Below, one piece after another: positions 1,424 to 62,374 of a stretch of DNA of 64,000 bases. Within the stretch, counting starts at the first letter, position 1; every line of letters begins with the position of its first letter. Under the pieces are notes generated by a model, which did not search any database, was not told the origin of the DNA, and worked only from the letters and a program-made list of their open reading frames with translations. The position numbers and the translations under genes are program-made. The stretch is from Planctomycetota bacterium (GTDB lineage: Bacteria; Planctomycetota; UBA11346): the NCBI GenBank assembly GCA_003136555.1, contig PLEW01000233.1:6067-70066 (forward strand), in the 5' to 3' direction.

Positions 1424-2662
1424 ATGATCCATCACCGCAGCATCGTCCGCTCGACCCTCCTCCTCCTCGCCGGCCTCGGCGTCGTCGTGGCGGCGGAGGA
1501 CCAACAGCCTGCGTCTGCACCCGCCACCGATCCGACCGCCCAGCTCAAGCAGCGCCTGGATGACCTGGAAAAGCAGATCAAGGCTCTCCAGGCCCAGGTC
1601 CAGTCGACGAATCAGCAGCCGTCCGACACCGCCGCCCTCGAAGCACGGGTATGGAAGCTTGAGGCGGAAGGACAGACCGACAACGGCTATGCCTTCGGTG
1701 GGGTCGGAGATGTGACCTTGGTGGCGCAGAAGAATGTCGGCAAGACCGTCAGCGCGGACTTCAATCCGATCTTCATCTACAACTACCGCGAGTCGTTCCT
1801 CTTCATCGCCGAGCTCAATGCCGATGAGAACGGCGTCTCACTCGGGCAAGCGTGGATCGCCTTCACCTCGCTGCCGCATGCGGTCGTCGAAGCCGGCCGC
1901 TTCCCGCTGCCCTTCGGCGTCTACTCCGAACGCCTGTCACCCAGCTGGGTGAACAAGTTCTCCACCAACGCGCCGCAGCCCTACAATACGGACTACGGCA
2001 TCTTCTCCGAAGACCAGACGGCCGATGGTCTGCAGGTGCGTGGGGACATCCCGCTGCCCAACAACGCCAAGGGCAATTACCATATCTTCGCGGTTGCCGC
2101 GCCAACCTATAATAGTCAGGATTTCTCCGATAACCGCCTAGTATTCGGCAATCCGGGCACCGGCGACCACGTCCGTCCGACCCTCGGTGCACGTCTCGGC
2201 TTCCTGCCGATGCCGACCGTCGAAATCGGCGTCTCGGGCATGTTCGGCGCGATCATCAATCAGCAGACCGCCGATCCGACCATCGATGATACGGCCGAAC
2301 GCTCCTACCATGCATTCGATGTCGATGCAGAGTACCACTACCAGAGCGCAGTCATCCGTGGTGAATATGTGCGCATGGACAATCAGGACCCCACCGGAGC
2401 CTGGGTGCATTCCCAGGGCGCCTATCTCCAGGGTTCGCACCGCTTGACCTCGCTGCAGGGCTGGTTGAGCGGCTTCGAGCCGACCATACGCATCGGACGC
2501 GTTCAACGCAGCGTCGTCGATAACGGCTATCAAGATGTCAATGAGCTCGATATCGGGGTGAACTACTATTTCACCAGCTACATCCGCACCTCTTTGATGG
2601 GATTCGACCACAGCGTCCATTCCCTGGACCAGGTCGTCCTCAACACCACATTCTCCTACTAG
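1424..2662 (+). CDS. Porin-like outer-membrane protein with N-terminal coiled coil (OprO/P-like architecture)
   Basis: Signal peptide MIHHRSIVRSTLLLLAGLGVVVAAED. Coiled-coil segment LKQRLDDLEKQIKALQAQVQ. Long beta-rich body ending ...LNTTFSY (aromatic C-terminus). GGAG upstream of the ATG. Confidence 0.65.
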   Translation: MIHHRSIVRSTLLLLAGLGVVVAAEDQQPASAPATDPTAQLKQRLDDLEKQIKALQAQVQSTNQQPSDTAALEARVWKLEAEGQTDNGYAFGGVGDVTLVAQKNVGKTVSADFNPIFIYNYRESFLFIAELNADENGVSLGQAWIAFTSLPHAVVEAGRFPLPFGVYSERLSPSWVNKFSTNAPQPYNTDYGIFSEDQTADGLQVRGDIPLPNNAKGNYHIFAVAAPTYNSQDFSDNRLVFGNPGTGDHVRPTLGARLGFLPMPTVEIGVSGMFGAIINQQTADPTIDDTAERSYHAFDVDAEYHYQSAVIRGEYVRMDNQDPTGAWVHSQGAYLQGSHRLTSLQGWLSGFEPTIRIGRVQRSVVDNGYQDVNELDIGVNYYFTSYIRTSLMGFDHSVHSLDQVVLNTTFSY

Positions 2663-2675
2663 GAAGGAACCGGAC

Positions 2676-2981
2676 ATGACGTTTTTCCCCATGACCACGC
2701 TGTCCCTGTCCCTGGCGCTTGTCGCCTGCGGATCGTTGCAGGCCGAGGATTCCATGCAGAGTGCTGCGATGGGCGCAAAGGTCTTCGCTGAGAATTGCAA
2801 CCGGTGCCATGAGGCCCCGGACCCGGCGTCGCGCGACGGTCGTACCTGGACCGGCATCTCCCTGCATATGCGCGTCTTCGCCGATCTCTCGCAGGAAGAC
2901 CAGCACCGCGTGCTCGCCTTCCTGCGCACCTTCGATACGGCGGCCATCCCCAAGAAGCCGGGTGTCCCCGCCGCACGCTGA
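2676..2981 (+). CDS. Monoheme c-type cytochrome, lipoprotein
   Basis: Lipobox LSLALVAC. Single heme motif CNRCH. AGGAAGGA ribosome-binding site. Starts 14 nt after the porin gene, so probably the same operon. Confidence 0.8.
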   Translation: MTFFPMTTLSLSLALVACGSLQAEDSMQSAAMGAKVFAENCNRCHEAPDPASRDGRTWTGISLHMRVFADLSQEDQHRVLAFLRTFDTAAIPKKPGVPAAR

Positions 2982-3128
2982 GCGAAGGCCTGGTTGCCGG
3001 GTGGTCCGCGCACTACCCGTCCTCTCCGCCCTTCCACGTCAACACCTCTAGCGGGTCGTCGAGCGGTCCTGGGAGGGGTCAGGGCAGGGACTGGTGGTCG
3101 ACGGGCGGATTTCCGCGACCGGCACACT

Positions 3129-3142
3129 GGATAAGAACATCT
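3129..3142. promoter_or_regulatory. Candidate operator site 2 of 7: GGATAA-GA-ACATCT
   Basis: AT-rich island (ggataagaacatctgtttattttattg) 47 nt upstream of ATG 3189. Nearly identical to site 7 (GGATAAGATCATCTGTTTAG). Confidence 0.5.
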
Positions 3143-3188
3143 GTTTATTTTATTGTCATGTGACAGTCACGCGCTAGCATCCTTTTAC

Positions 3189-3992
3189 ATGTCCGATTCG
3201 GCCCCCACGACACGACGTCATTCGCGCGTACCGGCACTCGATCCGGAACGCGCCTTGTCCCGTCTCAGCGCCGTGCAGTTGCGCGAGCGCGAGCTGCGCC
3301 GTCCGGGCTTCCATTTCGCCTCAGCAGACGCGCCGGAAGACTTCATCTCTGCCTATCCAGAACTTGCGCAGATCTGCGCGGAGTGGGAATTGTGCACCGG
3401 GCAAGCGATCGGTGAAAGAGGTCCAGCCGCCACGCAGATCCTGCTCGAACTCGCCCGCAGGGCACAGCCGCCCTATCATGGGTTCGATTGCGGCGAAGTG
3501 AATATCTCCCGCTTGATCGATGAACTGGTGGACCAGCACCACCCCGCCTTGCGCTGGGAATTGGCGCGGCTGGACTTGCTCGTCGCCCGGCAGTCCGAGC
3601 TGCGCAACCGCGCCGATGTGCGCACCCTGCATTGCGGCTGGGAGGTGTTCCGCGATCGCTTCCTGGATCATCTGCATGAGGAGGAGGTCCATTGCTTCCC
3701 GCTCTGCCGCTTCCTCGACCAGGCGCGCTCGGAGCTGCTGCCGTCACGAGCGCAATGCGCTAGCCAACTGGCCATCATGGGCAACAGCCATGCCCAGTCC
3801 CAGTCGGAACTCGACGAGATGCTCGTGCTGGCGCGTCGTGCGGACATCGCGGTCATCGAACCTGATCTAGGCGTGGTCGTCCATGGCCTGGTCGCCATGC
3901 GCCAGGCACTCGTGCTGCATACCGAGCTGGAGAACGGCTCGCTGCTCAAGCGCTGCGCCCTGCTGGCGATCCAGCGGACGTCGGCCGCGTAA
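3189..3992 (+). CDS. RIC/ScdA-type di-iron (hemerythrin-like) protein, paralogue 1
   Basis: The track ORF starts at TTG 3153; ATG 3189 (MSDSAPTT...) is more likely. Hemerythrin-like motifs VDQHHPALRWEL, LDHLHEEEVHCFPL and LHTELENGSLL match RIC H-x3-E / HxxxEN..LFP blocks. N-terminal FISAYPELAQICAEWEL resembles the ScdA_N region. Confidence 0.7.
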   Translation: MSDSAPTTRRHSRVPALDPERALSRLSAVQLRERELRRPGFHFASADAPEDFISAYPELAQICAEWELCTGQAIGERGPAATQILLELARRAQPPYHGFDCGEVNISRLIDELVDQHHPALRWELARLDLLVARQSELRNRADVRTLHCGWEVFRDRFLDHLHEEEVHCFPLCRFLDQARSELLPSRAQCASQLAIMGNSHAQSQSELDEMLVLARRADIAVIEPDLGVVVHGLVAMRQALVLHTELENGSLLKRCALLAIQRTSAA

Positions 3993-4178
3993 TCAGCGGT
4001 CCTGCGCGGGTTCGCGCCATCCGGGGATGCAGGGCGATAGGCACAGCCCATATGGAACGGCCGTGGGGTCCGTACGTTGGGACCGCCGACCGCCGATTTC
4101 CGCTCTGATATGACGATCAGGCAGGACTTGCCTGCGGCGCAGCATCGGCAAGGCACATCGGCACACGAGCAAATATCA

Positions 4179-4192
4179 GGATAAATATATCT
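4179..4192. promoter_or_regulatory. Candidate operator site 3 of 7: GGATAA-AT-ATATCT
   Basis: AT-rich island (caggataaatatatctctttacatgaatagatat) 60 nt upstream of ATG 4252. Followed by CTTTACAT, as at site 6. Confidence 0.5.
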
Positions 4193-4251
4193 CTTTACAT
4201 GAATAGATATGGTGCGACAGTGCCCGTGGACACCGACCGTAGGAGCCGCTC

Positions 4252-5121
4252 ATGGATGCATCAGCCATCACCGTGCCCTTTCTCGGCCACTCCTGGAAGC
4301 GGGTGTACTGGGTAGATGAGCCGGAAAGCGCGCAGCACCTGCCGCCGGTTCCTATGCCGGCATCGCCGGCTCCCGCGGGCGCTCCACCGCTTTTCAGCGG
4401 CGCCAGCCGCCGTGCGGACCTGGTCGCCGCCTATCCCGATCTCGATGCGCTGTGCGATCGCTTGTCCTTCGGCTGGGACATGACGTTGGAGAGCTTGTGC
4501 AGCCAGAGCGACTGGGCGCTCCTTGAACTGGCCCGTGCTGCCAAGCCGCCTCGGCAGGCACGTCAAGCCGATTGGTCGATGGCGACCATGAGCGAGCTGG
4601 TCGGGGACATCCTTATCACCCACCATCTGCCATTGCGCAGTGAACTGCGACGCATCGACATCCTTATCCATCAGTTCTGCCGCCGCCACCCCGAACTGGC
4701 ACATTTCGATCTCCATGGGGTCTATGCGCGTCTGGCCGATGGCCTGAATGCCCATCTCGACCATGAGGAGGGGGTGGTCTTCCCCCTGGGCCTCGCCATC
4801 GAGCGCGCCAGCCGTCACCCTGGCCAGGACGTGCCCGCGAGCAGCGCGGTCACCGGCGCCATCCGCTACATGGCGCTCGGCCACCAGGACGCTGCGCAGG
4901 CGATACGACGCCTGCTGGTGGTCCTACGCCAGGTGCAGATGAACACCTTCGATACCGATCTCGGACTGATCAGCGATGCCTTGGCCGCCATGCTGGCCGA
5001 TCTCACCCAGCATGAGGACAAGGAGGATGGCATCCTGATGCCGGCCGTCATCTTCGCAGATGAATTGCTGCGCTCCCGCGCAGCGGCACCCGCCAGCACC
5101 AGTCACGGATCAGCAGGCTGA
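4252..5121 (+). CDS. RIC/ScdA-type di-iron (hemerythrin-like) protein, paralogue 2
   Basis: AGGAG ribosome-binding site. Motifs LVAAYPDLDALCDRL, ITHHLPLRSEL, LNAHLDHEEGVVFPL and LTQHEDKEDGILMP parallel paralogues 1 and 3. Confidence 0.7.
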   Translation: MDASAITVPFLGHSWKRVYWVDEPESAQHLPPVPMPASPAPAGAPPLFSGASRRADLVAAYPDLDALCDRLSFGWDMTLESLCSQSDWALLELARAAKPPRQARQADWSMATMSELVGDILITHHLPLRSELRRIDILIHQFCRRHPELAHFDLHGVYARLADGLNAHLDHEEGVVFPLGLAIERASRHPGQDVPASSAVTGAIRYMALGHQDAAQAIRRLLVVLRQVQMNTFDTDLGLISDALAAMLADLTQHEDKEDGILMPAVIFADELLRSRAAAPASTSHGSAG

Positions 5122-5260
5122 GCACGCCCCATGGTCACACCTCCCCGATCCGCAGCGACAGGCCTGCACACCGGCGAGCCGGCGAGCGTCCGGACCATCC
5201 CATCATCCAGCATAACCGAGCGGGTCGATCCCGCAGACATCAGCTGAGCAGGAGACCGCC

Positions 5261-35810: not shown

Positions 35811-36383
35811 ATGCTCGAACCCACCGCCATCGATGCGCTCGTCCTGCGCGCCCAAGCCGGCGACCAGGAGGCCTTCGGGGCGCTGGTGATGGATTTCGAG
35901 TGGCCGGTCCGCGCCTGGATCACCGCTAGGTGCCCCGCCGGGGCAGACGCGGATGACGTCGCCCAGACGACCTTCGTCGAGGCGTTCAAGAATCTCGGCC
36001 GCTATCAGGTTGGATCGGATTTCCGCACCTGGCTGTTCACCATCGCCCGCTATCAGGTGATGGCCGAGCTGACGCGCTTGCGGCGCCTGGCCGACTACCA
36101 CGAGCGCTATTTCCCGCACGCGCTGTGGCAGGAGCTGGAACGGCGGGCGCTGATGATGGACCTGCGCGACGATGAGCGCCTGACCGCCCTGCGCGACTGT
36201 TTAGCGGCCCTGGACGACGACGACCGTGCGCTCCTGACCCAGCGCTACAGCGACGAGATGCCGCTGCGCCAGATGGCGCAGCTGCGCCAGCGCTCCGAGG
36301 GAGCGATCAAAAAGAGCCTGTTCCAGCTGCGCGAGCAGCTGCACACCTGCCTGATCCGCCGTCTGCGCAGCGAGCACCCATGA
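35811..36383 (+). CDS. ECF-type RNA polymerase sigma factor
   Basis: Region 2: FGALVMDFEWPVRAWI...DADDVAQTTFVEAF. Region 4: RALLTQRYSDEMPLRQMAQLRQRSEGAIKKSLFQLR. Confidence 0.9.
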   Translation: MLEPTAIDALVLRAQAGDQEAFGALVMDFEWPVRAWITARCPAGADADDVAQTTFVEAFKNLGRYQVGSDFRTWLFTIARYQVMAELTRLRRLADYHERYFPHALWQELERRALMMDLRDDERLTALRDCLAALDDDDRALLTQRYSDEMPLRQMAQLRQRSEGAIKKSLFQLREQLHTCLIRRLRSEHP

Positions 36384-38062
36384 CCGCGGCGGACGAGTCG
36401 ATGACACCAGCGCTCGCAGAGCTGTGGTCGCAGTTCCTCGATGGCGCACTGGAAGCGGGCCAGGCGGCGGAGCTGGAAGCGCTGCTACGAGCCGACCCGG
36501 CGAGTGCACGCCTGGCGGGGGAACATTATGTCGAGCACCGCCTGCTATCGCTGGCGCTCCAGCGCGAGGCGCCGGGGCGCTTCGTCACCGCTACCCTCAG
36601 CCGGATGGCGGAGGAAGGGCGATCCTTCTCCCAGCGGGTGCAGCAGCGCCTGACGCCCCTCCAGCCGACCCTGGTGCCCGCGCCTGCGCCCCGACGCCGC
36701 ACTCCGGCGTGGTTCGCCCCTACCGCTGCTGCGGCGTTGATCGCCATCATCACGGCCGGTTCCTTGCTGTACACGCACTCCACGCGACCCGCGCAGGAGA
36801 GCGCGCCGGCCACGCTGGTGGCCACCCTGGTGGTCGCTGACCATTGCGTCTGGCGGGGCACGCCGCGGGAGACCGGCGAACGGCTGGCTTCCGGAGAACT
36901 GGAGCTGGCTGCGGGGACCGCCCTGGTGCGCTGCGATGGCGGGGCCGAGCTGCTGCTCTCGGGTGCGGTCGCGGTGCGCCTCGAATCCGGCGGCAGCGCC
37001 GCATGCAGCCACGGCAGCGTGACCGTGCGTGCAGCCAAGCCGGTGGCCGGCTTCATCCTGCGCACCCCGGTGGCCGAGATCAGCGACCTCGGCACCGAAT
37101 TCGCCGTCACCGTCGGCGACGGTGGGATCACCGAGGTGCAGGTGCTCGAAGGCGGCGTCGAGTGGCGCAGCCGGTCAGCCGCGGCGGCCGATCCCGGGAC
37201 GCTGCTGCATCAGGGCCAGGCGGTGCGCGTGCGCTCGGCCGAGGACCGCATCGGCGAGCCGCTGCCCGTGACCGCCGTGCGTCTCGATGCCCAGCTTGAG
37301 CGGATCGAGACGGGAGCGCCCAACGCCGCCCTGATCAGCTATGACGGCTTCAGCTACGGTTTCCCAACCACCATCAGCAGGCGCAAGGACGCCAATGGCG
37401 GTACGGGCTGGCGCTCCGCCTGGTTCCGCAGCCAGCAGAGCAATGACCTGGTCATCGACTTCACCCCTGATGCCAGCCTCGCCATGCCCGATGACCTGCT
37501 CCCTGCACGCGGTGGCCGCATGGAGCTCCCGTCGGAGCCGGAGCGCCCAGGCACCTACCGCGAGGCCTGCATGCGGCTGTTCGCCCAACCGATCGCGATG
37601 GCCCGCGATGGTGTGCGCTATGTCAGCCTGCTCGTCTGCCGCAGCGCGGTCGCTAGCGGTCCGACACATTGGTGGTTCCGCTGCATGCTGACCTCGGAAA
37701 TGGTGCCGGATGACCGCATCGGCTTCGGCATCCTCAGCAATGGCTGCCCGGAGCTGATGAGCCACTTCGGCAACAGCCAGGCGGAGCAGCCGATCGTGGA
37801 TGGACGGCCCTACCTCTTCGTCTTCAAGCTGGTAACTGGACGCAGATCACCGGATCAGGCCTTCCTCAAGGTCTATGGCCAGCACGATGCAATCGATATG
37901 CATGAGCCCTCGTCCTGGACCGTGGCGGGTGTGCCGTGCCACTTCGATGGCGTCCTGGGGTCCATCCACATCAACAACGGCACCGAGCGCGCCTACAGCG
38001 TCGATGAGCTGCGCATCGGCATGACCTGGCAGTCGGTCACACCGCGTCGCAACACGCATTGA
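36380..38062 (+). CDS. Anti-sigma factor: N-terminal anti-sigma domain + TM + FecR-like + C-terminal LamG-like domain
   Basis: ATGA overlap with the sigma gene. TM segment FAPTAAAALIAIITAGSLLY. FecR-like central beta region (LRTPVAEISDLGTEFAV). Long C-terminal jelly-roll-like domain ending VDELRIGMTWQSV. Confidence 0.8.
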   Translation: MTAADESMTPALAELWSQFLDGALEAGQAAELEALLRADPASARLAGEHYVEHRLLSLALQREAPGRFVTATLSRMAEEGRSFSQRVQQRLTPLQPTLVPAPAPRRRTPAWFAPTAAAALIAIITAGSLLYTHSTRPAQESAPATLVATLVVADHCVWRGTPRETGERLASGELELAAGTALVRCDGGAELLLSGAVAVRLESGGSAACSHGSVTVRAAKPVAGFILRTPVAEISDLGTEFAVTVGDGGITEVQVLEGGVEWRSRSAAAADPGTLLHQGQAVRVRSAEDRIGEPLPVTAVRLDAQLERIETGAPNAALISYDGFSYGFPTTISRRKDANGGTGWRSAWFRSQQSNDLVIDFTPDASLAMPDDLLPARGGRMELPSEPERPGTYREACMRLFAQPIAMARDGVRYVSLLVCRSAVASGPTHWWFRCMLTSEMVPDDRIGFGILSNGCPELMSHFGNSQAEQPIVDGRPYLFVFKLVTGRRSPDQAFLKVYGQHDAIDMHEPSSWTVAGVPCHFDGVLGSIHINNGTERAYSVDELRIGMTWQSVTPRRNTH

Positions 38063-57327: not shown

Positions 57328-57939
57328 ATGCGCGGAACCCCACTGCCCAAGAAGCACGTCCACATCAAGACCAAGCACCGCAAGCTGCGCGGTCCGGATT
57401 GGCATATCTCGGAGATGATGCTGGACCGCACCATCGATGCGATATACCGCCGTCTTCCGGTGAACCGCAAATACCACGTGCCCTACCTGGCAGGCTACAG
57501 CACCGACGGCACGCAGATCTACATCGACAAAGACCTCCCGCCGAGCTTCACCAACAGCAACGGGGAGGAGATCGAGATCGACCGCTACCTGCTGCTGCAT
57601 GAGGCGGTCGAGAAGAGCCTGATCGATACCCTGGGCCTGCGCTATCAGCACGCGCACCAGATCGCCTTGCGCGCCGAGCAGGCGGCGGTGCGCGCCGACG
57701 GCGTCTCATGGCACGAATACGACAGCTTCATGATGAAGTTCGTCAAGGAGATGGGCGAGGGGAAGGTCACGCACGTGCCCCCGGATCTCGACCTCAAGCC
57801 CTACATCGATGAGCACGATACCGAGATCCTCGAGCAGATGCGCGTGCTGATCAAGGCGGCCAAGGCGCGTCACGCTGCCAAGGCGTCGACGTCAGCAAAG
57901 AGGGCCAAGAAGGCAAAATTGGCTAAGAAATCGTCGTAG
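57328..57939 (+). CDS. Hypothetical protein with Lys/Ala-rich basic tail
   Basis: 77 nt downstream of the ABC ATPase, same strand. No recognised motif apart from LLLHEAVEKS and the C-terminal KAAKARHAAKASTSAKRAKKAKLAKKSS tail. Confidence 0.5.
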   Translation: MRGTPLPKKHVHIKTKHRKLRGPDWHISEMMLDRTIDAIYRRLPVNRKYHVPYLAGYSTDGTQIYIDKDLPPSFTNSNGEEIEIDRYLLLHEAVEKSLIDTLGLRYQHAHQIALRAEQAAVRADGVSWHEYDSFMMKFVKEMGEGKVTHVPPDLDLKPYIDEHDTEILEQMRVLIKAAKARHAAKASTSAKRAKKAKLAKKSS

Positions 57940-57958
57940 GGACCCGGGCAGGGGGGCA

Positions 57959-59077
57959 TCAGTCGTGTCGCGGGGCGGTCAGACCAGCTAACGCGTCGAC
58001 CACCGGCAGCAGCGTGCCGTGCTGATCCCAGAAGGAGCGCGACTCGAAGCCATCGAAGCCGAGGCCAGGGGTGGTCTGGAATTCCGCGCCCCACCAGAAC
58101 ACGCCCCGGCCAGCCCCCTGAGGCAGCGCGGCGAGGATGCGGCGCAGGTCGGTGGCGAAGCGGACCTGGCCGTCCGGACCGATGGGAATGCCGTTTATCG
58201 CGGTGGGTGTCCCAGGGACCGGGCTGGCGGCCCAGGGGAAGGCGGTCTCGGCGATGATCACCGGCTTGCCATAGCGTCCGACGCAGCCGTTCAGGCAGGT
58301 GGTCAGCGCATCGAGCGAGCCATGCCAGAACGGGTAGTAGCTCTCGCCGATGATGTCGAACGCGACGCCCTGTGTGCGGATGAGCTCGTCGAAGAACCAG
58401 CGGGTGGTCTCCCAGTCCCCGCCACGATCGAGATGGATGATGGTCTGAGGTTTCTGCGCACCGCTGGCCTCGGCGATGCCGCGATCGGCGGCGCGGATCA
58501 GACGGGCGAGCTGCCGCCATTTCCCCGCACTATCCACCTTGCCCTCGGGCCACACCAGGCCCATCGGCGTCTCGTTGCCGATCTGCACCAGATCGGGCAG
58601 CACCCCGGCGGTGCGGAAGGCGGCGATGGTGTCGCGATTGTAACGGTACATCTGCTCTTCGAGCTGATCCATGCTCAGGCCTTCCCAGGCCATGGGCTTC
58701 TGCTGGTGGCCGGGATCCGCCCAGGAATCCGAATAGTGGAGATCAAGCAGGAGCTTGAGCCCGACCGCCTTGACCCGGCGGGCCAGCACCAGGGTGGCGG
58801 CGAGGGTGTTGCCATGATTGTAGGGATCTGCGGCGGCCTGCGCATCGCTGCAGGTCCACAGGCGCAGGCGGATGCAGGTGATGCCATGCGCTTTGAGGAT
58901 GGCGAGGGCATCGCGGGCGCCCGTGCCATCACGATAGAGATGGCCGCGGCTCTCCATCAGCGCCAGGTGCGACATGTCCGCACCGGCCAGGAACGGGAGG
59001 GCGGCCTCGGCCGCGCCGATGATGCAGCAGGCAGTGCTGAGCAGCAGCAGGGATCGTCGCATCAGGCCGTCCATCAT
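57959..59077 (-). CDS. GH53 arabinogalactan endo-beta-1,4-galactanase
   Basis: Signal peptide MMDGLMRRSLLLLSTACCIIGAAEA. GADMSHLALMESRG, CIRLRLW, HYSDSWADPGHQ, VQIGNETPMGLVWPEG and IIAETAFPW motifs, typical of GH53. Confidence 0.85.
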   Translation of the reverse strand: MMDGLMRRSLLLLSTACCIIGAAEAALPFLAGADMSHLALMESRGHLYRDGTGARDALAILKAHGITCIRLRLWTCSDAQAAADPYNHGNTLAATLVLARRVKAVGLKLLLDLHYSDSWADPGHQQKPMAWEGLSMDQLEEQMYRYNRDTIAAFRTAGVLPDLVQIGNETPMGLVWPEGKVDSAGKWRQLARLIRAADRGIAEASGAQKPQTIIHLDRGGDWETTRWFFDELIRTQGVAFDIIGESYYPFWHGSLDALTTCLNGCVGRYGKPVIIAETAFPWAASPVPGTPTAINGIPIGPDGQVRFATDLRRILAALPQGAGRGVFWWGAEFQTTPGLGFDGFESRSFWDQHGTLLPVVDALAGLTAPRHD

Positions 59078-59117
59078 GGTGGCTTGCCGTCATCCCCGCG
59101 AGGCCAGCTGACGATCC

Positions 59118-60560
59118 TCACGGCGTCTGCGCCTGGAGCCGATAGAGGCGGATCCAGTCGATGTCGAGCTGGTGGTCGGGCGCGGCTGCTGAAGCTTCAG
59201 GGGTGACGGTGAGCTCCACGGCCAGGCTCAGCCCGCGAGCGATCGCCGAGGTCCAGCCGGCATCCCGCGGGACGGCAGCGGTGCCGATGCGCTCACCATC
59301 GCGCGTGCAGATCAATCCGCTGGACGTCCAGGTGATGCTGAAATCGTGGTAGCCAGGCGTCACCGGCGGACCGACGCCCAGCTGCATGTCCTGCCCGTCC
59401 CGCAGCGACCACCGCCAGTGCGCCGGATCGCCGGTGGTGGACAGGAAGACGATCTCCGCCCCGGCCGGCCAGTGGTCCGCGTCGACCGCCCAGACCAGCG
59501 GCCAGAAGCCAGGGCTCATGGGCATGCGTGCACGGATGTCCAGACGCATGCCCGGACGCATGCGCACCGCCTGCGCCACCAGCGCCGCGGAGGTCCAGCC
59601 GCTGGCACTGCGGGTGGCGGTGATATGCAGGGCGCCATGGTCCACCTGGGCATGGGCGGCATCGTAGCGCTGCATGTCATGGTTCGATCCCGTCGGGCGG
59701 CTCCACGGCCGCCAGCGTCCCGGATCAGGCTGCCCGCTGGCTACGAACTCATCGGCCCACACCAGCTGCCAGCCCGCGGGCAGGCCACTGGCGAGCGCGG
59801 CAGTGGTCATCGTCCCACCGCTGGCGATCCGCGCCGTCCGTCCTCCCGCGCTGAACGTGACCGTGCCGCGCTCGACCTGGCAGGTGGTCTGGCCGCCGAC
59901 GGTGACGGTGAAGACCGTCCCCACCACCGCGATGGTGGCGTCGAGCGTGCGGACGCGGAACGGATGCCGGGGGGAATGGGGCAGGACCGTGCAGCGGACC
60001 TCGCCACCCTCCACCTGGAGCACCCCGTCGACCAGCCGCAGGCGGCTGCCTGGGGTCGCCTGAGCGGTGGTGCCATCGCTCCAGCAGAGCATGACACCGG
60101 TGCTCGCGGCAATACCAGCACCGCTGCTGGGCAGCGGGCTGCCGACATCGCTGCGGCCATCCGCCGCGATCCACGCGCCGCTGGTGACGTGCACCGGTCC
60201 TTCGTCACCAGGCCGCGTCAGGAAGGCTACTCCGATCCCCAGCAGGAGGAGGGCGGCTGACGCCCAGGCGAGGGGGGTGAGACGGCGGCGCTGGCGCGGG
60301 GCGGGCAGGGTGCGGATGGTTGCCAGGGTGCGTTCGTGCAGGCGATCGCGGTCATACTGGCGGACGCGCGCCATGATCCGTCCGGCCAGGCCGGCGGGAG
60401 ACGACGCGCTGCGCAGCAGGGCATGCTGGTGCAGCAGCTGCATAGCCGCTGCAACCTCGTCGGGATGGGTGAGCTGCTCCTGGCGCAAGGCCGCATCCAG
60501 GGCGTCGGCATCGCTGCTGCCGTTGAGATAGGCGAGCACCAGCTCATCGGCTGCGGTCAC
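59118..60560 (-). CDS. Anti-sigma factor: N-terminal anti-sigma + TM + FecR-like + C-terminal GH16-like (catalytically degenerate) domain
   Basis: Trimmed from ORF 59118..60737 to GTG 60560 (GTGA overlap with the sigma stop). TM segment LAWASAALLLLGIGVAFL. FecR-like VRTLDATIAVVGTVFTV. GH16-like WQLVWADEF...GWTSAAL...GFWPLVWAV...WPAGAEIVFLS, where the canonical E-I-D-I-x-E reads E-I-V-F-L-S (59439..59456). Confidence 0.8.
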   Translation of the reverse strand: MTAADELVLAYLNGSSDADALDAALRQEQLTHPDEVAAAMQLLHQHALLRSASSPAGLAGRIMARVRQYDRDRLHERTLATIRTLPAPRQRRRLTPLAWASAALLLLGIGVAFLTRPGDEGPVHVTSGAWIAADGRSDVGSPLPSSGAGIAASTGVMLCWSDGTTAQATPGSRLRLVDGVLQVEGGEVRCTVLPHSPRHPFRVRTLDATIAVVGTVFTVTVGGQTTCQVERGTVTFSAGGRTARIASGGTMTTAALASGLPAGWQLVWADEFVASGQPDPGRWRPWSRPTGSNHDMQRYDAAHAQVDHGALHITATRSASGWTSAALVAQAVRMRPGMRLDIRARMPMSPGFWPLVWAVDADHWPAGAEIVFLSTTGDPAHWRWSLRDGQDMQLGVGPPVTPGYHDFSITWTSSGLICTRDGERIGTAAVPRDAGWTSAIARGLSLAVELTVTPEASAAAPDHQLDIDWIRLYRLQAQTP

Positions 60561-61129
60561 GACGCCCCCTGCTTGCGGGCAAGGCACGCTCGCAACGCGA
60601 TGCGGATGCGCGACAGCAGCTTCTGGGTCGCCCCCTCGCTGCGCCCCAGTCGCGTCGCCACCAGGGCGATGGACAGGTCCTCGGCATAGAACAGGCGCAG
60701 CGCCTCCTGGGCGACGTCGTCGAGCTGGTCGCGGCATTCCTCCAGACTTCTACGCAGGAGCTCCTGAGTGGAGTGCCAGCTGGCATCCGGTTCGCTCGCC
60801 GCGCTCAGGGACTCCTGATACAGGGTCACTCGCCGCTGTTCACGGCTCCGGTCACGCAGATGGTTGCGCGCCAGGTTGCGCGCCATGGTCACCAGCCAGG
60901 CTTGGATGTCGGTGCCCAGGGCGTAGGCATCGAGCCGTTCATAGGCGCGGATGAAGGTGCGGTGCACCAGATCCTCGGTCGCCAGGCGATCCTCCAACAG
61001 CGGTGCCACCACGCGCCAGACGGCGTCCTGGCAGTGCTCCACTACCATCGCGAATGCCTCACGGTCGCCAGCCAGGACGTGCGCTACCGCGCTGTCAAGG
61101 CGGTTCAGCTGATCCGGTGGAGTGCTCAT
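60557..61129 (-). CDS. ECF-type RNA polymerase sigma factor
   Basis: Region 2: FAMVVEHCQDAVWRVV...EDLVHRTFIRAY. Region 4: EALRLFYAEDLSIALVATRLGRSEGATQKLLSRIR. Confidence 0.9.
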   Translation of the reverse strand: MSTPPDQLNRLDSAVAHVLAGDREAFAMVVEHCQDAVWRVVAPLLEDRLATEDLVHRTFIRAYERLDAYALGTDIQAWLVTMARNLARNHLRDRSREQRRVTLYQESLSAASEPDASWHSTQELLRRSLEECRDQLDDVAQEALRLFYAEDLSIALVATRLGRSEGATQKLLSRIRIALRACLARKQGAS

Positions 61130-61261
61130 GCCACCAGACTAACACCGCAGTCCGCTGGACCAGACCGGGAATCGTGGCCACGATGGTGTCCGGAAGCAGG
61201 AGTTGGCTCCGGTACGGGGATGCGCACACGCCTGCCACGGGCGAGACAGGCTCGTGCAGCG

Positions 61262-62374
61262 TCAGGGCCGCTGCAGCACCCGCGCGATATTGTCGTGATA
61301 CAGATCCTGGAGCGTCTGCTCGCTGAGGGCTAGGCCGTAGAGCGGCCAATGATAGCCGAATTTGCCGGTCTCATAGAAATGCTCGTCGGCGGTCTCGAGG
61401 ATGCGGAAGGTCACCGGATAGATCCCGACCGTGTAGTGGTTGTCCGTGCCATAGAGCAGGCGCGTGTGATAGCGCTCAATGAAGGCTTGGACGAAGCGGG
61501 GGATCGGCGCGATCTCGCCGTAACGCGCAGCGATATCGGCATAGAGGTTCGGGTAGGCGTCGAGCAGACGTCCCAATTGGGTGAGATCCGCGCAGCAATT
61601 GGCCAGATGGCAGGCGATGAAGGTGGTCGCGGGATTGTCGCGCACGGCCGCCTCCAGCGCAGCGAGCAGGTAGTCGTGATCGGCGAGTCCTGGGCGCTGG
61701 CGGTCGACCCGCCACTTGGCGGCATTCATCAAGCCGTCATTGGTGGCATCCGGCGCATGGTACATCCAGGCGTCTTCGCCAATGTGGATGTTGATCGGCA
61801 TGTGCAGCTGGGCGCAGGCGGCCAGGAGCGGCTTCATGCGCGGGTCGTTGATATGCATGCCGACGGTGGTGTCGCTGTGCGATGTCAGGGTCGCAGTGGT
61901 GGAGATCGGCTTGAAGCCCATGCCCTTGTCCATCAGCTCGCCGACCCCGCGAGCGCCCAGCTCATGGCTGTGGTGGAGGTCGGCAACCGCACGCTCGCTC
62001 CAGCCCGGCTTGTCCCAGTCGGTGAAATCGAAATAGCACCACAGCTCGAAGCGATCGGGGTAGCGGCCGTATTTGGCGATCAGCGCGGCCAGGGCGTCGC
62101 CGGTCGCGAAGGACAGCACGATGGACCGGCTGATGTTCGCCCCATCCATCGCGGCCACCCAGGCGTCGACTTCCTCCGGGGTCTTGGCGTAGTCATGGGT
62201 GTGGACGTCGATCGCCGCGAACTTGGCCCGGTGCACCTGGGTCTGTGGGATGTGGTAGATGGATTCCGGGCGGAAATCCTTGAGCAGGATCAGATCGGCG
62301 CCATCCGTGGCCGGGTCGGCAGCAGCGAGCACGGAGGTGCAGATGGCACAAAGCAGCAGATGATCGTAGCGCAT
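61262..62374 (-). CDS. Amidohydrolase-family (TIM-barrel metal-dependent hydrolase) secreted protein
   Basis: Trimmed to ATG 62374 (AAGGAG RBS), giving signal peptide MRYDHLLLCAICTSVLAAA. AIDVHTHDY (HxH metal motif), MPINIHIGED and LYGTDN motifs. Confidence 0.8.
   Translation of the reverse strand: MRYDHLLLCAICTSVLAAADPATDGADLILLKDFRPESIYHIPQTQVHRAKFAAIDVHTHDYAKTPEEVDAWVAAMDGANISRSIVLSFATGDALAALIAKYGRYPDRFELWCYFDFTDWDKPGWSERAVADLHHSHELGARGVGELMDKGMGFKPISTTATLTSHSDTTVGMHINDPRMKPLLAACAQLHMPINIHIGEDAWMYHAPDATNDGLMNAAKWRVDRQRPGLADHDYLLAALEAAVRDNPATTFIACHLANCCADLTQLGRLLDAYPNLYADIAARYGEIAPIPRFVQAFIERYHTRLLYGTDNHYTVGIYPVTFRILETADEHFYETGKFGYHWPLYGLALSEQTLQDLYHDNIARVLQRP

Follow-up and report, generated by a model that had tools for sequence, protein, structure and literature searches.

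Planctomycetes are major degraders of complex polysaccharides, with few TonB-dependent transducers and many pairs of extracytoplasmic function (ECF) sigma factors and FecR proteins. We know of no Sus-type regulators in these bacteria, and how they sense glycans is, to our knowledge, largely unknown. One such pair, on a 64,000-nucleotide stretch of the Planctomycetota bacterium contig PLEW01000233.1 (the window), raises the question of whether an anti-sigma factor can carry its own glycan receptor. The pair lies directly upstream of a gene for a glycoside hydrolase family 53 (GH53) galactanase, and its anti-sigma factor ends in a domain that resembles GH16 enzymes and lacks part of their active site. 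An earlier note on this DNA had proposed that this domain, a dead enzyme fold, couples glycan sensing to expression of the galactanase. As far as sequence can tell, the core of that proposal held: the periplasmic part of a FecR-type anti-sigma factor includes a GH16 homologue devoid of the catalytic Asp and acid/base residue, and this fusion is coupled to GH53 in five loci. The full model, in which a glycan sensor in the periplasm controls autoregulated expression of GH53, has in our view a probability of roughly 0.6.

A GH16-derived domain on a FecR-type anti-sigma factor

The anti-sigma factor gene (59118-60560, minus strand, GTG start) encodes 480 residues, of which 255-480 (window 59121-59798) form a catalytically degenerate, GH16-like beta-jelly-roll domain with shortened loops. 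A phmmer comparison of residues 248-480 with all PDB chains retrieved ~30 GH16 enzymes, many of them laminarinases with E values between 6e-12 (the best match) and 1e-9, and aligned WPAGAEIVFLS with WPxxGEIDIME. Using hhalign, a profile of the five available orthologues (the window protein, three from congeneric genomes and one from a metagenome contig) matched a profile of 20 GH16 enzymes over 215 columns, equating to the whole domain (99.4%, E 9e-22). The Pfam GH16 model misses the domain (E 0.087; 12.7 bits against a cut-off of 22), hence public annotation lists FecR only, and similar sensors are probably under-counted for the same reason.

For the full-length anti-sigma factor, AlphaFold run on the single sequence gave an uninformative model (predicted local distance difference test score, pLDDT, 40), which was replaced by an AlphaFold2 model of the C-terminal domain built on an alignment containing GH16 sequences (pLDDT 80.8; predicted template-modelling score 0.82). 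The top Foldseek matches of this model were GH16 laminarinases (E ~1e-15, TMq 0.70-0.77), and those at TM 0.68-0.74 included GH16 O-glycanases of gut bacteria. The latter group of enzymes cleaves beta-galactosyl linkages. The GH16-like fold, originally read from the landmarks WQLVWADEF (residues 264-272), GWTSAAL (321-327), GFWPLVWAV (351-359) and WPAGAE (364-369), all of which are present, was therefore borne out by phmmer, hhalign and Foldseek.

GH16 enzymes share the catalytic motif E-x-D-x(x)-E, comprising the nucleophile, a helper Asp and the acid/base. The window strand aligned to the E-I-D-I-M-E of these enzymes reads E-I-V-F-L-S (residues 369-374, window 59439-59456, minus strand), exactly as first described, and the loss of Asp and acid/base Glu extends to all five orthologues. 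Their motifs are E-I-V-F-L-S (window), E-A-V-F-L-S, E-A-V-L-L-T (twice) and E-V-V-L-L-T; the nucleophile Glu369 is invariant (5/5), Val stands in for the Asp, and Ser or Thr for the acid/base Glu (5/5). A complete triad in a shifted register, which the earlier note had considered fatal to its reading, was also ruled out: at n+2, n+4 and n+5 all five orthologues lack an acidic residue, and the next one comes nine positions later, in a loop. The domain is almost certainly a catalytically dead GH16 homologue. Having the fold and homology of GH16 and lacking the family motif, it is, to judge from its sequence, GH16-derived and not a GH16 enzyme.

Despite this loss, the domain keeps the residues that form the cleft floor in the enzymes, namely the nucleophile, the His in YHDF and the tryptophans in GFWPLVW and HW. 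The columns that hold W353, W357, W364, E369 and H405 are invariant in an alignment of 57 GH16-type sequences, which includes the window protein, one orthologue and a second FecR-GH16 fusion, P0017 (described below). The PDB matches include GH16 nucleophile mutants (E to S) crystallised with bound oligosaccharides, which shows that an inactive GH16 cleft can still bind ligand. Identity among orthologues in the GH16-like domain (47-56%) is the same as in the cytoplasmic and FecR parts. This even conservation, together with catalytic loss in 5/5 orthologues, argues for purifying selection on a non-catalytic function, not decay.

The rest of the protein places this domain in the periplasm. Its sole hydropathy peak is a transmembrane helix at residues 94-115 (window 60216-60281, minus strand), preceded by RQRRR, which would leave residues 1-93 in the cytoplasm and 116-480 in the periplasm; the anti-sigma factor is thus predicted to be a single-pass inner-membrane protein. 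Residues 1 to ~90 are assigned to a cytoplasmic helical N-domain by a weak NCBIfam match and the single-sequence model, which has five helices at residues 3-83, albeit at low confidence (pLDDT 40). The transmembrane helix is followed by a periplasmic FecR domain (PF04773; residues ~131-250, window 59811-60170, minus strand; 29.5 bits against a cut-off of 24). A FecR domain after a single transmembrane helix, encoded by a gene that overlaps an ECF sigma factor gene, identifies a FecR-type anti-sigma factor. Pfam reported no RsgI_N domain in the protein, which places it outside the RsgI/Rsi24C family.

Within the VVGTVFTV segment of the FecR domain lies a candidate self-cleavage site, Gly214-Thr215 (59916-59921, minus strand). 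VVGT was invariant in three full-length proteins, the C-terminal ORF (open reading frame) of a fourth, frameshifted orthologue (genome G004) and the independent fusion P0017; the fifth orthologue sequence, P0009, does not cover this region. The Gly-Thr pair sits at about the position of G181-T182 in the E. coli FecR model (residues 181-237 correspond to model positions 144-201). Self-cleavage at Gly-Thr has been documented for FecR and FoxR (PMC9249621), and by analogy may also occur at Gly214-Thr215.

Operon-like structure, co-inheritance and a candidate promoter

The three ORFs are co-oriented on the minus strand in the order sigma, anti-sigma, GH53 (window 57959-61129), and their coordinates were the same as those originally reported. 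The sigma factor gene (60557-61129, minus strand) encodes 190 residues with Sigma70_r2 (PF04542, E 6e-13) and Sigma70_r4_2 (PF08281, E 1e-7) domains, and its TIGR02937 score (78 bits against a cut-off of 42.9) places it among ECF (group 4) sigma factors. The best subfamily was TIGR02989 (Rhodopirellula/Verrucomicrobium type) at 102.2 bits, below the cut-off of 124.55, and we therefore treat the protein as a predicted relative of this subfamily, not a certified member. The GH53 endo-beta-1,4-galactanase gene (57959-59077, minus strand; 372 residues with a signal peptide) matched PF07745 with 278 bits (E 1e-82), and its best PDB matches were the beta-1,4-galactanases 1hjs and 7osk (E 1e-55). Membership of GH53 was judged by a TIM-barrel profile plus the catalytic Glu residues in G-N-E (acid/base) and E-T (nucleophile); the IGNE and AETA of the window protein align to both catalytic Glu positions of 1hjs/7osk, making it a member.

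The sigma stop codon and the anti-sigma GTG start share 4 nt (GTGA), as stated in the earlier note, and this overlap is also found in the orthologues. The GTG start is backed by orthologue N-termini (MSTADDL and MSRADDL, compared with VTAADEL in the window). In the window, 40 nt separate the anti-sigma stop from the GH53 start, and in two congeners (G003 and G010) the GH53 ATG overlaps the anti-sigma stop (ATGA). Neither a sigma-70-type promoter (consensus scan) nor an intrinsic terminator was detected in window 57700-61500. Given these overlaps, the short gap and the lack of an internal terminator or sigma-70 promoter, the three genes most likely form a single operon. Convergent with GH53, a 203-aa ORF with a Lys/Ala-rich basic tail and no Pfam match (window 57328-57939, plus strand) is not kept beside the cassette in the orthologous loci.

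We further investigated the occurrence of the cassette beyond the window's source, a metagenome-assembled genome (MAG) of 5.9 Mb and 86% completeness (G000). Genes for the fused anti-sigma factor turned up in G000, 3/10 congeners (G003, G004 and G010) and one Logan metagenome contig (L022), and the gene order sigma, anti-sigma, GH53 was maintained in 5/5 loci. Its distribution is otherwise narrow. Among 401 sampled Planctomycetota genomes only G000 and G003 carried the fusion, and an exhaustive HMMER search of 1.8 billion representatives returned only these orthologues below E 1e-30. Scanning public genome contigs gave no match with the single protein and two already-known MAG relatives with the alignment. 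GH53 orthologues (66-68% identity) were confined to genus members with the sensor; G005, G007 and G009 had neither, and G024 had a distant GH53 with no sigma or anti-sigma gene beside it. Whilst genome incompleteness limits such presence/absence counts, the sigma, anti-sigma and GH53 genes appear to be inherited and lost together. The anti-sigma reading frame is intact in G000, G003 and L022. In G004 (C51; L019:7744-9175) it is split near residue 188 by a frameshift (...DAGS/ALRCT...), and the downstream GH53 gene is intact.

In search of an ECF-type promoter, we compared the sequences that precede the sigma gene at the four loci available, using an ungapped, ATG-anchored alignment. This revealed two conserved blocks before the sigma ATG, designated here as a candidate ECF-type autoregulated promoter (61140-61165, minus strand): GTCTGG (61165-61160), an 11-nt variable spacer and GCGGTGTTA (61148-61140), followed by 10 nt to the ATG (10-11 nt across the loci). 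The GTCTG and GCGGTGTT blocks are invariant and at the same distance from the ATG in the four orthologous loci, and the spacer sequence and flanks diverge. Read as GTCTGG-N16-GTTA, the motif has the spacing of ECF promoters, and its proximity to the ATG implies a very short leader or none. The exact motif occurs once in the 5.9-Mb assembly. No copy is present in the window's gap before GH53. On L022 (Logan SRR24677614), a second copy, GTCTGG-N16-GTTC (2091-2115), lies in the 39-nt gap directly before GH53, which is only suggestive as the loose form of the motif is expected ~1 per 25 kb by chance.

The suggestion that the same sigma factor also controls the neighbouring amidohydrolase and CBM-SGNH esterase (CBM, carbohydrate-binding module) had to be dropped. 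Both genes are non-syntenic in the orthologous loci and neither has a copy of the motif, which is single-copy in the genome.

Probable glycan sensing and its alternatives

The strongest comparative argument for a receptor role came from a second FecR-plus-GH16 anti-sigma factor, unrelated to the window fusion. This 508-aa protein (P0017), encoded on a 7290-bp ENA ERZ19400609 contig (L021, locus 1814-5173), is likewise specified by a gene with a 4-nt overlap with its own ECF sigma gene. Its motif reads E-I-D-I-F-Q, whereby Gln takes the place of the acid/base Glu, and the final strands of the GH16 domain are missing. This domain shares 45-49% identity with real laminarinases, marking it as a much younger recruit. 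An intact GH16 gene (EIDLME) adjoins the P0017 sigma/anti-sigma pair and is divergent from it. Thus, two unrelated FecR-GH16 fusions both lack the acid/base residue and both lie beside a glycanase. A search of the L021 locus for a shared promoter motif turned up only an 11-nt perfect inverted repeat (GATTACCAAAT / ATTTGGTAATC), which precedes each of the two divergent genes and lies 1 nt from the ATG of sigma and 36 nt from that of GH16. Two fucosidase-like genes flank the pair. Ten representative-search matches with a GH16 region and an N-terminal extension, beside the orthologues, were checked with Pfam and only P0017 had FecR; the other nine proved to be ordinary GH16 enzymes, in some cases with additional ricin, cadherin-like, BACON or CBM6/35 modules.

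A further variant occurs in the window's own genome, where a PA14 domain is fused to a paralogous FecR anti-sigma factor (G000:C184:47885-49279; L029:4886-6280) that has its own ECF sigma gene upstream. PA14 also serves clostridial RsgI proteins as a sugar-binding sensor module, and this pair may be another glycan-sensing switch. The gene that follows encodes a 1179-aa protein with DUF7133, HEAT repeats, a cytochrome c domain and a weak, sub-threshold match to glucose/sorbosone dehydrogenase (GSDH-like). The window itself contains a second ECF sigma/FecR anti-sigma pair (35811-38062), in which Pfam sees only FecR in the 560-aa anti-sigma factor. Immediately downstream of this pair come a PSCyt/PSD (DUF1592-family) gene and a DUF1552 gene. 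The PSCyt and PSD domains in the window are specific to planctomycetes, in line with the origin of the DNA.

Taken as a periplasmic glycan sensor, the cassette would work as follows. At rest, the N-terminal domain would tether the sigma factor to the membrane. Once in the periplasm, a beta-linked glycan or oligosaccharide would bind the dead GH16 cleft, and binding would expose the periplasmic part to processing, as in Fec/Fox-type anti-sigma factors. Processing could run through possible self-cleavage at Gly214-Thr215, a periplasmic protease and, finally, a site-2 protease of the RseP type; the G000 genome encodes an RseP-like M50 protease. The freed sigma factor would start transcription at GTCTGG-N16-GTTA before its own ATG, leading to more sigma factor, sensor and exported GH53. 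GH53 would in turn release more oligosaccharide, closing a feed-forward loop. Precedent for glycoside hydrolase modules as anti-sigma sensors supports reading the dead GH16 domain as a receptor, and the FecR-PA14 paralogue and the second FecR-GH16 fusion beside a GH16 enzyme point to glycan recognition.

Which glycan would be bound is a more delicate matter. The strict linkage specificity of GH53 makes fragments of beta-1,4-galactan the first guess, which we hold only tentatively. Beta-1,3-glucan is the alternative, since the closest relatives of the domain are laminarinases. The device may therefore be the same and the ligand different, with beta-1,3- or mixed-linkage glucan from fungal, algal or plant walls acting as a general cue for decaying biomass and GH53 as one output whose substrate differs from what the sensor binds. 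The best sequence and structure matches (7wwc, 4bq1, 4crq and 6xof) are GH16_3-type laminarinases and beta-1,3(4)-glucanases, and the P0017 sensor is clearly laminarinase-derived and adjoins a laminarinase. However, at every locus the window-type sensor has GH53 as its partner and never a glucanase, and the sole other GH16-type gene found in G000, a secreted enzyme with an intact GEIDILE motif, is on a different contig (C237:84789-85946; L002:1354-2421). In addition, the structural matches include O-glycanases, and at only ~25% identity to any enzyme, specificity cannot be read from homology. We consider a glucan ligand unlikely, though it is the best of the alternatives.

A glycan need not be involved at all if the GH16-like domain is an inert periplasmic cap or a protein-interaction module, the sigma factor answering some other signal and GH53 being a co-transcribed passenger. 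Canonical FecR proteins do sense by protein-protein contact with a transducer and not through a small ligand (PMC9249621). Cleft-shaping loops have been deleted, the stretch past the catalytic strand is poorly modelled, and the G000 genome has seven TonB-dependent receptor hits. None of these (0/7) is on the window's contig, however, and no transducer belongs to the conserved cassette of the orthologous loci. With ~20 FecR-domain ORFs in G000 against seven receptor hits, most of its FecR anti-sigma factors cannot depend on a dedicated transducer. The invariance of the cleft tryptophans, His and nucleophile Glu, along with the glycan recognition suggested by the independent FecR-GH16 fusion and the FecR-PA14 paralogue, makes a cap improbable. 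Finally, it is very improbable that the domain retains enzyme activity through some unconventional mechanism, or that the gene is a decaying, non-functional remnant: the nucleophile Glu is kept and the G004 orthologue is frameshifted, but no acidic residue occupies the Asp or acid/base position in either register in five orthologues, and the domain is conserved like the rest of the protein over ~50% divergence, with the frame intact in three loci.

Several observations weigh against a glycan sensor driving GH53. Compared with the enzymes, several cleft-shaping loops are deleted or shorter, and a 16-residue deletion lies just past the catalytic strand, where the model is least confident (pLDDT ~50); the cleft may have been remodelled or lost. 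The structural model, being built on a GH16 alignment, leans towards the GH16 fold, though the sequence statistics are independent of it. The N-terminal anti-sigma domain is a weak match (NF052375, residues 18-134, 23 bits against a cut-off of 100). As its closest relatives are beta-1,3-glucanases and not GH16 enzymes active on galactan, the sensor may not share a substrate with GH53. The G004 frameshift may stem from an error in MAG assembly, or else the sensor is dispensable or inactivated in that genome. The promoter motif is a guess based on conservation, and its loose form is frequent by chance.

Should the sensor-operon model be correct, a disabled glycosidase head on a FecR scaffold would be a concrete, testable answer, for at least one pair, to how planctomycetes sense glycans. 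It would also mean that the GH16 fold can be repurposed for signalling, and a cassette this compact (promoter, sigma, sensor and enzyme) could be moved to a heterologous host as a glycan-responsive switch.

Relation to known sensing systems

The scaffold of the window system is that of the FecI/FecR/FecA type (E. coli Fec; Pseudomonas FoxR and PupR), with which it shares an ECF sigma factor, a single-pass anti-sigma factor, a periplasmic FecR domain and the Gly-Thr motif. A further likely common feature is release of the sigma factor by Prc-type and RseP proteolysis (PMC9249621). The window cassette differs in having no TonB-dependent transducer and in its output, a glycanase and not an iron-uptake system. 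Where the C-terminal part of FecR/PupR touches the transducer signalling domain, the window protein has its GH16-like domain instead, implying direct sensing.

An ECF sigma/FecR pair directly upstream of regulated glycanase genes is also found in Tannerella forsythia and in Bacteroidota polysaccharide utilisation loci with ECF/anti-sigma pairs. In both, the signal passes through a SusC-like TonB-dependent transducer, and in T. forsythia SigG/FecR control the locus of the GH16 glucanase GlcA (PMC13352502). There, GH16 is the regulated enzyme, whereas in the window it is a disabled sensor fused to the anti-sigma factor and SusC/SusD genes are lacking. A GH16 fold described as catalytically inactive has its own parallel in Rv0315 of Mycobacterium tuberculosis, a 'pseudo beta-1,3-glucanase' (PDB 4wzf) that ranked 15th among our structural matches (TMq 0.66). 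Rv0315, in contrast, is a free-standing secreted protein outside signalling proteins and has no known link to a sigma factor.

Our literature search found no description of a FecR-scaffold anti-sigma factor with a GH16-derived pseudo-enzyme head that faces the periplasm and has its regulated enzyme within the operon. The device had been put forward as distinct from SusR, hybrid two-component (HTCS) and TonB-linked signalling. It does differ from these, but it is not without precedent, since glycoside hydrolase and other carbohydrate-active modules serve as sensors in Clostridium thermocellum (Rsi24C-GH5 and the RsgI proteins with GH10, PA14 and CBM3).

In Rsi24C (Cthe_1470/1471, with sigma24C), a GH5 module has lost its acid/base residue and still binds cellulose (PMC3526467), and the SigI/RsgI biomass sensors include RsgI6-GH10, RsgI3-PA14 and RsgI1/2/4-CBM3 (PMC6852018, PMC3990059). 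As in the window, a membrane anti-sigma factor bears a carbohydrate-active extracytoplasmic module and is encoded beside its sigma factor. Autoregulation of the gene pair and glycoside hydrolases as targets, both predicted for the window, are likewise shared. The differences are in the surroundings and the parts. C. thermocellum is a monoderm Firmicute whose sensors face the medium, whereas the window sensor faces the periplasm. The clostridial scaffold is of the RsgI_N type and pairs with SigI-type sigma factors (sigma24C in the case of Rsi24C); the window protein has FecR, and its partner belongs to the ECF sigma factors, with planctomycete families as relatives. The clostridial GH5 and GH10 sensors are TIM barrels, whereas the window sensor is a GH16 beta-jelly roll, and in the window the enzyme under control sits within the same operon. 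The window system is therefore predicted to work like the RsgI/Rsi24C sensors without being a member of their family, which would carry the idea of a 'pseudo-enzyme as receptor' beyond the cellulosome regulators of Gram-positive bacteria, to an organism that has a periplasm.

More speculatively, Planctomycetota FecR anti-sigma factors might constitute a modular family of direct periplasmic glycan sensors, with heads (dead GH16, PA14 and further, as yet unrecognised types) recruited repeatedly, at least sometimes by duplicating the enzyme to be regulated, fusing the copy and then disabling its acid/base residue. If so, the two FecR-GH16 fusions without an acid/base Glu would be snapshots of this recruitment at different ages, and the family a diderm counterpart of clostridial RsgI.

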